Shown here piece after piece: positions 34,703 through 57,760 of a DNA stretch of 64,000 nt (position 1 is its first letter; the number at the start of each line of letters is the position of its first letter). This DNA comes from Eledone cirrhosa (taxonomy: Eukaryota), in the NCBI GenBank assembly GCA_964016885.1, contig OZ024741.1, positions 60,512,001-60,576,000 on the forward strand. The letters are read 5' to 3'. The notes beneath the pieces are model-generated. The model saw only the letters and a list, made by a program, of their open reading frames with translations, was not told the origin of the DNA and ran no database searches. The translations under genes and the position numbers were made by a program.

Positions 34703-35137
34703 ATACATATATATATATATATACATACATACACACACACATATATATATATACACATAAATATATATATATATATATATATATATATATATATATATAT
34801 ATATATATATATATATATATATATATATATATATATATATATATATATATATATATATATATATGTATATATATATATGTATATATATATATATGTATAT
34901 ATATATAAATACATACATACATACACATATATATATATACATATAAATATATATATATATATATATATAAAGAATTAGTATATCTACTAACATATATATT
35001 CAGATGCATACCTATGCCAGCAAATATATAGGTTTTGTCTTAGTAACTTTGTGGTTCAATGCATGGGGATGCAGAACAATAATATGAGAGACGTAAAATA
35101 GGAAAATTATAAAAATTAACTTACTTACTAAAATTTC

Positions 35138-35219
35138 ACTACAACTAATTAGTTTCTGAAAGGGGATAAACATAGTTTCCGAAGAAACGTACGGAGAAGC
35201 CTTTCGTCATCAGGGAAGT
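35138..35219 (-). ncRNA. Hammerhead motif, family R2
   Basis: minus: acttcc-CTGATGA-cgaaagg..cctttca-GAAA-ctaattag-TT-gtagt. Confidence 0.7.
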
Positions 35220-35569
35220 CTATTCTCAGCTAAGTTTCCAGGCAATACGTGGACACAGAGAACTTATACAAAAATAATTCAGTGGATGGAAAAAAGCAAA
35301 GCGTGGACTAAGTTCCAAGCCATTGAAAAAATTACTGCCTACTGCGTCGGTGGCAAATTCAAAAGAATCAATCACGTGACATCGAGGTCAATCAGTGAAG
35401 AGTGGTTTGTTAAGAAGACAGCAGCCGGACCGTTACTATGAACTATAGTAGCAGTTTTGGCCAATTTTGGCTCGACAAAATAATTTGGAGATAATTATAA
35501 AGAATTAGTATATCTACAAACATATATATACAGATGCATACCTATGCCTGGAAACTTAGCTGAGAATAG

Positions 35570-35651
35570 ACTTCCCTGATGACGAAAGGCTTATCCGTAC
35601 GTTTCTTCGGAAACTATGTTTATCCCCTTTCAGAAAATAATTAGTTGGAGT
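35570..35651 (+). ncRNA. Hammerhead motif, family R2 (stem III point change)
   Basis: acttcc-CTGATGA-cgaaagg..cctttca-GAAA-ataattag-TT-ggagt. Confidence 0.7.
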
Positions 35652-36099
35652 GAAATTTTAGTAAGTAAGTTAATTTTTATAATTTTCTTATTTTACGTCT
35701 CTAATATTATTGTTCTGCATCCCCATGCATTGAACCACAAAGTTACTAAGACAAAACCTATATATTTGCTGGCATAGGTATGCATCTGTATATATATGTT
35801 AGTAGATATACTAATTCTTTATAATTATCTCCAAATTATTTTGTCGAGCCAAAATTGGCCAAAACTGCTACTATAGTTCATAGTAACGGTCCGGCTGCTG
35901 TCTTCTTAACAAACCACTCTTCACTGATTGACCTCGATGTCACGTGATTGATTCTTTTGAATTTGCCACCGACGCAGTAGGCAGTGATTTTTTCAATGGC
36001 TTGGAACTTAGTCCACGCTTTGCTTTTTTCCATCCACTGAATTATTTTTGTATAAGTTCCCTGTGTCCACGTATTGCCTGGAAACTTAGCTGAGAATAG

Positions 36100-36181
36100 A
36101 CTTCCCTGATGACGAAAAGCTTCTCCGTACGTTTCTTCGGAAATTATATTTATCCCCTTTCAGAAACTAATTAGTTGGAGT
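36100..36181 (+). ncRNA. Hammerhead motif, family R2
   Basis: acttcc-CTGATGA-cgaaaag..cctttca-GAAA-ctaattag-TT-ggagt. Confidence 0.75.
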
Positions 36182-36623
36182 AAAATTTTAGTAAGTAAGT
36201 TAATTTTTATAATTTTCTTATTTTACGTCTCTCATGTTATTGTTCTGCATCCCCATGAATGGAACCACAAAGTTACTAAGACAAAACCTATATATTTGCT
36301 GGCATAGGTATGCATCCGTATATATATGTTAGTAGAAATACTAATTCTTTATAATTATCTCCAAATTATTTTGTCGAGCCAAAATTGGCCAAAACTGCTA
36401 CTATAGTTCATAGTAACGGTCCGGCTGCTGTCTTCTTAACAAACCACTCTTCACTGATTGACCTCGATGTCACGTGATTGATTCTTTTGAATTTGCCACC
36501 GACGCAGTAGGCAGTGATTTTTTCAATGGCTTGGAACTTAGTCCACGCTTTGCTTTTTTCCATCAACTGAATTATTTTTGTATAAGTTCCCTGTGTATTG
36601 CCTGGAAATTTAGCTGAGAATAG

Positions 36624-36707
36624 ACTTCCCTGATGACGAAAAGCTTCTCCGTACGTTTCTTCGGAAACTATGTTTATCCCCTTTCAGAAACTAATATTAG
36701 TTGGAGT
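36624..36707 (+). ncRNA. Hammerhead motif, family R2 (stem III extended to ctaatattag, still palindromic)
   Basis: acttcc-CTGATGA..GAAA-ctaatattag-TT-ggagt. Confidence 0.72.
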
Positions 36708-54510: not shown

Positions 54511-54981
54511 CTAGGCTTTCAATCCTTTATTGATAGTATTGTAGGTATTATTATTAGTTAATTGATATTTGTTGGTAATACTATTAGTTAAAAGTTGGTT
54601 ATACAAAGTACTATTAACTTCAAAGAGATTTTTAGTTTTATCAGAAAGAACAAAGGTGTTTGTAGAATTTCTAAAGTAAGAAATATCGTTAGATAGTTTA
54701 GTTTGAAAGTTATTATTGTACTTACGAAATTTGATATCACTAATTAGATTAACAAGGTCTAATACGAAGTTGGCCATGTCTTTAATTCTAGGTGGATATT
54801 TACGGGATTTTATGTCAAAACAATCATTAGTATCAGCACTGAAAAGTCCATCGTAAACCATTGCCTTCCATGTCATTCTTTTAACGACTTGTTCGATTTT
54901 ATCTATAAGCATTTTGGTATAAGTTGTGTTGGAAGGAGTAGGTATATTTTTGATTGAATAATCCAATTCATAAAGGTCCAT
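54511..54981 (-). pseudogene. PLE ORF N-terminal domain (frameshifted remnant)
   Basis: YSIKNIP / KRMTWKA / DKT motifs, typical of invertebrate PLE N-termini. Confidence 0.75.
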
Positions 54982-55195
54982 GGTGTATGTTGGTTAAATT
55001 CCTGAAAACTGTAGAGTGCTCAACTAATCGGGCTCGAAAGTGCCAATCGTATATATAATATAGAATATGCTTCAATCAATCCCGGTTGGAGCTGTATAAA
55101 TGAAGTAATTCCGTCGGAAGGGTCCAGGAAAAAAGAGTGCTCTATGTAGGTAACAGAGCTTAATAGTTATGTAATAAACAACATAAGGCAATTAT

Positions 55196-55253
55196 TCCAT
55201 TTACCAGTGGTTTCTTAAAAGCAAAAAATGTTGCTTTCAATCATCAGAATGAA
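55196..55253 (-). ncRNA. Type I hammerhead motif upstream of the PLE ORF
   Basis: minus: ttcatt-CTGATGA-ttgaaagcaa..ttgcttttaa-GAAA-ccactgg-TA-aatgga. Confidence 0.82.
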
Positions 55254-56543
55254 AAAACCCTGGTCTGTTTATTGAATTTGGATTTTAAAAGCAAAAATGC
55301 AATCTATATGAAAGTGAGGCTGAAGAAAGAAGAAGGAAAGTAAAAATAAAATAAAAACACACATACAAACACACACACATACACACACACACACACACAA
55401 AAGCATACATACACACACACATATATATATATATATATATACATACACTCATACATACACACACATATACACGTATATATGTGTATATAAATACACACAT
55501 ACACATACATATACACATACATACACATACATATACACATACATACAACGCACATAAATATCAATACATCCATACATACACATACATATATACAACCACA
55601 CACACATATATACACACACATATATATATATATGTATATATATATATATATATATATATATATATATATATATATATATATATATATATGCATACACATA
55701 CACGTGCATAGCCATACACACATACATATACATACATACATGCATACAATCATACCTATATACGCACGTACATACATACATACACATACATAAATGCATA
55801 CATATGCATGTACAAAATTAGAAAAATATACACACACCTCTACATATTCACGCACGCAAATAAATATAAGAAAAAATATATATAAAAATAAAATAATAAA
55901 AACTATTATATATATATAATATATATATATAAATATATATATAATATATATAATATATACATATATAGATATATATAATATATATATAATATATACGATC
56001 AGAGCAAACAGCACGGACACTCTATCTCAAAATTATTTTTGAAAAGCATTTAGAAATACGCAACCGGTAAAAACTTAAAAACTTAAAACCACAACTGAAT
56101 ACTAACCCATACAATCACTAATACTCTTTTATTCCTAATTAAACCATTTTTCAACTGTGAACAATTTGTCAGCATTTTCTATTCCGTTTACCAATATATA
56201 TATATATATATATATATATATACATATATATATATAAAATATATTTATAATATAAATATATATACATATATATATAATATGCATATAATATATATATATG
56301 TAATATATATGAATATACATATATACAGTATTTACGTATCGAGAAAGAGAAAAAAAGGGGAGGATAGGTTATACATATAGTTATTTGCCAAGTAGCGTAT
56401 GCCAAAGGTGCTGGATACTAGTGCCGGCAGTATTAAATATTCGAAGTCTTAATATTTAGTGGGCTAGAGAATTAGCAGAGAGTAAGCACGTGGGAAAGTA
56501 AAAAATCGGAGAATAGACCGTTAAAACATGTTTATTTAAAACA

Positions 56544-56584
56544 GCACCTACGTACGTTTCGCCCAATTGGGCTTCTCAAGGGCA
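56544..56584 (-). ncRNA. Minimal hammerhead motif, U3-A8 variant
   Basis: minus: gccc-TTGAGAA-gccc-aatt-gggc-GAAA-cgtacg-TA-ggtgc; stem I is imperfect. Confidence 0.65.
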
Positions 56585-57166
56585 TAAATAATCACAAGTG
56601 TTCCTTATATTGCTCGGAAAGAGTTTTGGGGATTAAATCCACATCAGGGTTCATTGCTCGCAAAAATATCTTGTTTTGATTTTGCAGCAGGTCAAGGGAG
56701 GTAACTCTGGTCGGTGTTAGGGCAGTCTTTCCCGGACAGTTTTATTATAACGCCCGCTTTGTCCGTTTGTAAACAAACTGACAGCCTGAATTTATGCCGT
56801 ACGGTGTTAAGGCAACCACGGTACCTTTTTGTTCAACACTGACACAGGAACGATGTACTAGTTTCAAGCTTCTTAGCTATCATCAGCACTGTATACCCTT
56901 CTGCCAGGTGGTTGAACGTTCGAAAGTATATACTTTCCTTATGAAAATTAACGGCTGAGCAGCCTAATTTGCATATCGAGTGAGTTCAGTCGGCCAGGCG
57001 CACCGAAAACGATAAGTTGTAATAAAATGAAAACGAAATTTCATTTCTCACTCTTAGTACGGCACTTACTTAAATGTAAGTAAGTATGTATACGTACATA
57101 CATATATGTATACAGACGTACAATAGCATGCATATATATATATATATATATATATATATATATATA

Positions 57167-57760
57167 TAAAGGACGTAAAATAAAAAAATATTTTTTTAAA
57201 AAAAATTTAAAAAAAATTTTTTTCTTACTTAAATTTTCACTCCAACTAATTAGTTTCTGCAATGGGATAAAGACAAATCACTGATTTGTCGAGCAAACTT
57301 GCCAAAACCACTTCTAAAAAAAAAAAACTAGCCTCTGTGTCACGTGATTGATTCTTTAGAATCGGCCATTTGACTTGAAGCAGTGAGAATTTCGGTACAT
57401 AGAATTCAGTCCTCGCAAGCTGTTCGATCTACCGAATTATTATTATTTTTATATGAGCCGCCAGTGTCCGCGCATTGCCTGGAGACTTAACTGAGAATAG
57501 ACTTCCTGATGACGCAATGAATTCTCGACAGTTGAATTACGTAACTGTCTTTATCCCATTGCAGAAACTAATTAGTTGGAGTGAAAATTTAAGTAAGAAA
57601 AAAATTTTTTTTAAATTTTTTTTAAAAAAATATTTTTTTATTTTACGTCCTTTATATTATTGTTCTGCATTCTCCTGCATTGAACCACCTAGGTACTATG
57701 ACATAACCTGTGTATTTGCTGGCATGGGCGTGCATCTGTGCGCTTATGTTAGTTGATATA
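57167..57760 (+). mobile_element. Family R2 element (short inverted end plus monomer) inserted in the (TA)n of array monomer 1
   Basis: 57167-57273 is the reverse complement of ~57547-57655; homologous to the 35 kb and 46 kb repeats. Confidence 0.85.
57501..57582 (+). ncRNA. Hammerhead motif, family R2 variant
   Basis: acttc-CTGATGA-cgcaatg..gacagtt/aactgtc..cattgca-GAAA-ctaattag-TT-ggagt. Confidence 0.8.

Follow-up and report, generated by a model that had tools for sequence, protein, structure and literature searches.

The window analysed here is a 64,000-nt stretch of the Eledone cirrhosa genome (contig OZ024741.1, positions 60,512,001 to 60,576,000) that carries, at three loci, a repeat with a hammerhead ribozyme motif. 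We propose that this repeat is probably a non-autonomous Penelope-like element (PLE), i.e. a non-LTR retrozyme (LTR, long terminal repeat), likely copied by the protein of a PLE of the Hydra clade and endowed with a structurally conserved hammerhead predicted to cut multimers into units. A first-pass annotation of the window had described the repeats, and inferred a functional ribozyme from compensatory changes in stem II; the insertion anatomy of PLE type and the likely pseudoknot reported below were both absent from its account.

The homology of the three loci was borne out (blastn identities of 71–84% between loci), with coordinates slightly adjusted. They had been presented as independent, which holds for the insertions but not for the sequences, these being related by descent. 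Rather than a plain tandem, each locus comprises two joined arms, one inverted and one direct, and all three are bordered by (TA)n. A search of the 3.0 Gb genome with a pattern for the core and stem III returned 10,449 matches versus 0 for the reversed control, and thus the motif does not arise by chance; two upstream patterns gave 2,684 and 3,839 matches. About 290 loci (L-numbered), many of them overlapping and representing only part of all copies, were fetched, and yielded 99 distinct cut-to-cut monomers of 511–594 nt in 33 clusters, up to 39% divergent (one chimeric unit was left out of later work). Tandem arrays reach at least 6–9 units. No long open reading frame (ORF) was found in 33 representative monomers, the longest Met-started one coding for 86 amino acids, and the monomers lack the reverse transcriptase plus GIY-YIG ORF of an autonomous PLE. 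The core pattern matched nowhere in the metagenome or viral contigs searched, and the contigs of two unlabelled sequencing runs that cover the stretch are uninformative on expression.

Non-coding tandem units with one type I hammerhead each and dispersed copies are the sequence hallmarks of non-LTR retrozymes. The metazoan retrozymes described in PMC7229834 and 10.64898/2026.07.22.740005 share these traits with the repeat, as well as a low GC content, thousands of dispersed copies and co-occurring PLEs. Its units exceed the 170–400 nt given in the former source and fall within the 51–972 bp given in the latter. The repeat differs from those retrozymes by its 50-nt stem II and by head-to-head arms with two fixed ends.

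The hammerhead has a type I layout, with the core CUGANGA...GAAA...UH and three stems of which stem I is open. From an alignment of 39 representatives, built from sequence only, RNAalifold recovered the proximal and distal parts of stem I and stems IIa, IIb and III, with two-sided changes in 7 of 23 pairs. The stem II bases that had first suggested covariation (GAAAGG/CCTTTC, GGAATG/CATTCC and GCAATG/CATTGC) read as stated, except that the copies at 36106 and 36630 have GAAAAG and one A-C mismatch. The selection on RNA structure deduced from them gained support in the larger, tree-aware test, which used the 39 representatives and a tree of 32 monomers computed from 393 columns outside the ribozyme. 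Position 2 of IIa (columns 44:94) occurs as AU in 13 representatives, UA in 13, GC in 8 and CG in 5, and changed three times per side on this tree, with 3/3 changes coincident. Position 5 of IIa (columns 47:91) is UA in 19 and GC in 16 but broken in 4, and the IIb pair 60:80 is UA in 31 and CG in 7. At least three co-changes were found for 105 of 52,031 column pairs; only 2 of these are at least 90% Watson-Crick, and both lie in stem II. The named 27-pair structure is paired in 95.6% of 1053 cells, versus 89.1% in shuffles and 35–50% with slid partners, while the count of its pairs with two-sided change was not above shuffles (183/500). Compensatory change supports IIa, IIb and stem I; stem III is uninformative because it is invariant. 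The GAAA-to-GTT stretch shows 0.07 changes per column versus 1.5 for the monomer overall, the catalytic core and stem III being its most conserved part, and no other conserved helix stood out in a tree-aware scan of the monomer.

Shared descent of a few subfamilies, or a fold-back at the DNA level, might produce such covariation with no selection on RNA. The independent events are indeed few, 2–3 per pair, recombination between subfamilies could distort the tree, and branch-length nulls for four stem II pairs, which gave P values of ~2e-4 (best pair), 0.008 and 0.004, left one stem IIb pair non-significant (P 0.13). We find this explanation scarcely credible, given that all four pair types occur at IIa position 2 with no unpaired intermediate (39/39 representatives, and 198 of 199 distinct copies from L091–L260), that this position is the best pair among the 52,031, and that stem I changes its length on both strands together. 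The covarying hammerhead is a real, selected RNA structure.

Three traits of this hammerhead had been called unusual: the GUU site, the C-A apposition next to the core and the enlarged stem II. The first two are present in 7/7 parsed window copies, and in 198 (GTT) and 193 (C...A) of the 199 distinct copies. They are known features of PLE hammerheads, since the rows of Craig et al. File S2 (PMC8557442) show U17, in 10 of 26 Hydra rows by hand count, many mismatches by the core, and C...A in PLE-X1_cBra. In contrast, the two-helix stem II is atypical for PLE hammerheads. It measures 50–51 nt between CUGANGA and GAAA, not the ~55 nt first estimated, and its loop 2 is a 36–37-nt two-part insert versus 3–10 nt in the 26 Hydra rows of the same file. 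Owing to this long stem II, the motif was likely missed by the Rfam hammerhead models: no hammerhead was among the 4 matches for 36050–36760 (E up to 10), nor among the matches listed for the whole window (150 of 266). The minimal PLE hammerheads of PMC4209133 have in common with the repeat an extra base after A9, a G-C first pair, covariation-rich families and a palindromic helix III that needs a dimer; the repeat differs by an extra A also before G12, a distal stem I and a predicted pseudoknot. Its 12-nt palindrome takes in A14 and U17 (self-duplex of -11.4 kcal/mol), an extension that may help dimers form or hinder cutting.

The predicted pseudoknot joins GAGAA, 5' of stem I, to the complementary UUCUC in the stem II internal loop, with 94.4% of cells paired. 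For an upstream strand reading GAAAA, a hand count over 100 of 434 raw matches gave 65 distinct places, and in 56 of them the facing base is U. These 56 all stand in a single stem II background and likely go back to one compensating event, whereas 8 of the other 9 are scattered among other backgrounds. Two further hammerhead families, described below, have candidate pairings of the same layout: AAGAA/UUCUU in 10 of the 13 sister-family copies with a core, and in the third family GGGCA/UGCCC, exact in 22/46 copies and with at least 4 of 5 pairs in 40/46. A 5-bp loop I–loop II pseudoknot GAGAA/UUCUC, with the same layout in these two families, is likely and is new here; our literature search, which covered few subscription journals, found no title or opening of an abstract on a pseudoknotted long-stem PLE hammerhead. 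An alternative pairing, GAAUAG with the 3' loop UUUAUUC, was dropped because its variants do not compensate. PLE motifs have been described as devoid of tertiary contacts (PMC6155905). About five Watson-Crick pairs between stems I and II are also found in the pseudoknotted hammerheads of PMC3088659, including the type I human C10orf118; according to that source, such pseudoknots occur in all three hammerhead types and speed cleavage. The present case differs from these ribozymes in that the stems are long, both partners belong to their internal loops, the whole is part of a mobile repeat, and the pairing is a predicted one.

A second line of evidence comes from the way the copies end. Among 412 arm 3' ends, 308 lie at two fixed sites, ~59 and ~177 nt past the predicted cut (hereafter short and long ends), and 278 of these 308 run into TA-rich DNA, as expected for a (TA)n microsatellite target. 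The 119 head-to-head pairs comprise 97 long plus short, 1 short plus short, 0 long plus long and 21 with an irregular end; hence 97 of the 98 pairs with both ends fixed combine one long and one short end. The tail between the fixed sites (~118–122 nt) forms two conserved hairpins, with two-sided change in 3/29 pairs. Partial tandems with an inverted, 5'-truncated arm and a tail at one end constitute the insertion anatomy of PLEs. Such head-to-head arms in (TA)n, with a long fixed end on one and a short fixed end on the other, are PLE-like and new here; the same literature search found no title or opening of an abstract on paired long and short ends.

Hydra-clade PLEs as described in PMC8557442 have in common with the repeat the (TA)n target, the inverted 5'-truncated arm and the one-end tail, as well as a short palindromic stem III, a frequent GUU and unpaired or mismatched bases by the core. 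In contrast with them the repeat has no ORF, and its tail of ~118–122 nt compares with 30–40 bp for PLEs generally. For the Anolis Poseidon PAc element studied in vitro (PMC11167929), the reported features likewise include an AT-rich target and a tail delimited by two internal priming sites, and both DNA strands are cut and extended; its start site shows no strand difference, whereas the arms of the repeat almost never share a site (97/98).

The copies might be mere cut-down 3' ends (pseudo-LTRs, or pLTRs) of an autonomous PLE with no unit mobility of their own, since PLEs usually give rise to head-to-head pairs of 5'-truncated pLTRs (PMC8557442) and only part of the copies was sampled. Nevertheless, the 99 distinct monomers of 511–594 nt, with Met-started ORFs of at most 86 amino acids in the representatives, and the arrays of at least 6–9 units make this very unlikely. 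In addition, PLE ORF pieces near repeat copies are variably placed, and the one inspected (L218) is set apart by (TA)n.

As for the enzymes that would mobilize the repeat as a non-autonomous PLE, an ORF fragment of the window belongs to an abundant family with intact 834-amino-acid ORFs elsewhere. These carry RIRWR, DKT and CxCX5C, which are marks of Hydra PLEs; the PLE ORFs went unrecognised by Pfam, and the clade was therefore assigned from the motifs of Craig 2021. The pLTR hammerhead of this element has a ~105-nt stem II, C...A, a palindromic CGATCG stem III and GUA, and the ends of the element, which border on (TA)n, lie near +64 and +200, the same two-end layout as in the repeat. This intact Hydra-clade PLE is likely the helper, an assignment drawn from target and layout only; at the 8 loci compared, it has no DNA likeness to the repeat beyond low-complexity matches. 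A single weak profile match to the first half of the monomer (E 0.001, L220:2245-2484, in L220/L262/L263) is perhaps a distant relative.

The 5' ends of the arms bear on whether the hammerhead cuts. A first peak exactly at the cut (24/408) was an artefact of queries starting there, and the ends were recounted with natural flanks. After this correction, 42 of 343 lie within 30 nt past the cut versus 6 in the 30 nt before it, the highest value of 530 sliding windows. For one-cut arms, 29/181 end in the first 30 nt past the cut, where 12.3 were expected (P 1.6e-5); the following 30 nt contain 5 ends, and the 30 nt before the cut 2. This pile-up of broken 5' ends past the predicted cut is new here. 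It fits cut templates; a stall at stem I fits too.

Indeed, with the same element and helper, the hammerhead could be a protein-binding or stalling structure that rarely cuts, held off by GAGAA/UUCUC or by A14-U17. In 2/4 copies tested, the 5' fragment folds so that GAGAA and UUCUC form a simple hairpin spanning the core, and the excess of 5' ends is spread over 30 nt, as a reverse transcriptase stalling at stem I would give. Moreover, the Anolis hammerhead requires protein and is dispensable in vitro (PMC11167929), and 8/9 Xenopus dimers were uncleaved, with 1/9 cleaved (10.64898/2026.07.22.740005). Published PLE-type hammerheads are often weak, and low activity is reported for the minimal ones (PMC4209133). 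We judge a rarely cutting structure unlikely, as no part of the monomer is better conserved than the catalytic core with stem III, very few ends fall in the 30 nt before the cut, and stem I–II pseudoknots accelerate other hammerheads (PMC3088659). The hammerhead is likely to be a functional ribozyme, one that is predicted to cut itself.

Several observations weigh against our interpretation of a non-autonomous PLE with a cutting, pseudoknotted hammerhead. Concerning the cut, its exact base is weakly marked (8/350 ends before cleaning, P 0.048; 3 clean cases), up to 3 of the 29 ends of one-cut arms may belong upstream, and a second peak of 23 ends sits on a tail hairpin, so structure stalling can also produce peaks. 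Insertion of the Anolis PLE did not need cleavage (PMC11167929). Regarding the fold, the four window copies showed no advantage over shuffled sequences (z +1.15 to -0.67), and with U17 the palindrome reaches as far as A14, a lengthening that could lock the RNA in an inactive duplex. Within the family, compensation of the pseudoknot is a single event, conservation of its 3' strand does not exceed the average (1.8 changes per column), uncompensated variants exist (the UUCAC group; GAGGA/UACUC in L221), and the folding program pairs GAGAA with the stem I U-run instead. Finally, an autonomous element sharing DNA with the repeat family was not found in 8 Hydra-PLE loci and ~1 Mb of masked loci.

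On our preferred reading of the repeat as a PLE-dependent retrozyme, tandem copies would be transcribed into multimeric RNA, in which ribozymes would pair two by two via stem III (or two RNAs would do so by their palindromes) and cut after GUU; the 5-bp pairing of the stem I and II internal loops would keep the long stem II alongside stem I. The PLE protein would bind the hairpin-rich tail and nick both (TA)n strands, and reverse transcription would be primed once at each fixed site; the two complementary DNAs would stop early and be joined head to head. Some templates likely start at the cut, and this would explain why 5' ends are overrepresented immediately past it.

The features of the three loci are listed in Table 1. 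Seven window hammerheads with a full 5' half were parsed: 35576, 36106, 36630, 46267 and 57506 on the forward strand, 35213 and 45634 on the reverse. The core, which the first-pass annotation considered retained, keeps its letters in 6/7, the locus 2 inverted copy being mutated. Likewise stem III is palindromic as described at, e.g., 36106, but not at locus 2. The copy at 57506 is the sole defect-free one of the 7, because the others have a mismatch, an altered stem III or a mutated core.

Table 1. Window coordinates of the repeat loci, their predicted hammerhead features, the bordering (TA)n tracts and the candidate helper.
Feature	Position	Strand	Description
Locus 1, inverted arm	34966..35554	-	3' end is the long fixed end (monomer position ~177 past cut); 5'-truncated at position 119; hammerhead core 35213 with stem I mismatch
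Locus 1, direct arm	35545..36761	+	Part monomer and two full monomers (530, 526 nt); stops at short fixed end (position 59); cores 35576 (defect ATAATTAG), 36106, 36630; predicted cuts after 35646, 36176, 36702
Hammerhead	36106..36176	+	Core CTGATGA, 50-nt stem II, GAAA, palindromic stem III CTAATTAG, GTT site
GAGAA, 5' strand of predicted loop I–loop II pseudoknot	36092..36096	+	Partner TTCTC 36121-36125
Tail example	36236..36353	+	~118 nt between the two fixed ends; conserved 8-bp and 21-bp hairpins
Locus 2 (L031), inverted arm	45507..45750	-	Short end; hammerhead 45634, mutated core CTGGCGA
Locus 2 (L031), direct arm	45750..46518	+	Long end; starts within stem II of first hammerhead; complete hammerhead 46267, predicted cut after 46337, non-palindromic stem III CTATTTAG; predicted pseudoknot GAGAA 46253-46257 / TTCTT 46282-46286
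Locus 3 (L087), inverted arm	57164..57275	-	Short end; hammerhead 3' part only
Locus 3 (L087), direct arm	57274..57779	+	Internal deletion, long end; intact hammerhead 57506, predicted cut after 57577; predicted pseudoknot GAGAA 57493-57497 / TTCTC 57522-57526
Target tract of (TA)n, left of locus 1	34703..34969		
Further (TA)n tracts	36760-36874, 45487-45511, 46516-46610, 57132-57168, 57756-57932		
Hydra-clade PLE	window 31337, 32862-33479 (ORF fragment); L303-L310	-	Intact ORFs elsewhere; hammerhead

Other hammerheads accompany the repeat. The old sister family (L313–L344), ~72–87% alike, has the same hammerhead layout with a CCATGG stem III, GUU and AAGAA/UUCUU; no attached ORF was found, and TA runs or DNA that is not shared lie between it and the neighbouring ORF pieces. 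The third hammerhead family, at 28070–28420 (+) of the window (core 28095), has a 95-nt branched stem II, a CGATCG stem III and GUU, with 299 genome matches, a tandem spacing of ~720 bp (L377, L382–L384) and a fixed end ~185 nt past the cut. Another Hydra-like PLE (55247, 52346 and 54511–54993, reverse strand) possesses a hammerhead with a CCACTGG stem III and GUA, which precedes an N-terminal ORF fragment by ~250 nt. Family 1 (56700–64000, reverse strand) is a tandem of 493-bp units whose hammerhead is minimal (14-nt stem II, CTAG, GUA) and which show no DNA likeness to the repeat family studied here; the insertion site of locus 3 is the TA tract of one of its units. Hammerhead-like motifs with a TATATA stem III lie at 1202 (+) and 30999 (+). 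By locus 2, a long near-perfect fold-back at 45172–45366 likely consists of two short head-to-head arms of another element. The window further contains reading frames of non-LTR retrotransposons with an RVT_1 domain at 13188–15761 (-) and 12335–13240 (-), and a tRNA match (71.5 bits) at 30101–30173 (+).

The role of PLE hammerheads and the making of inverted-plus-tail insertions are treated as open by Craig 2021 (PMC8557442) and Frangieh 2024 (PMC11167929). The present family, small, free of ORFs and present in thousands of copies, yields rules that can be counted: each insertion has a long end and a short end, and 5' ends are in excess just past the predicted cut. Since long-armed hammerheads escape Rfam, such motifs are likely undercounted. 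Going further, we tentatively raise a broader idea, which we hold to be possible rather than probable: Hydra-type PLEs and their hitchhikers in this genome may carry a distinct long-armed hammerhead with stems I and II locked by an internal-loop pseudoknot, and one RNA-protein complex may prime once per fixed site on opposite strands, often on ribozyme-cut RNA of unit length. If true, the genomic copies would be a record of this mechanism and would give the first in vivo sign of cutting by PLE hammerheads and of the purpose it serves.

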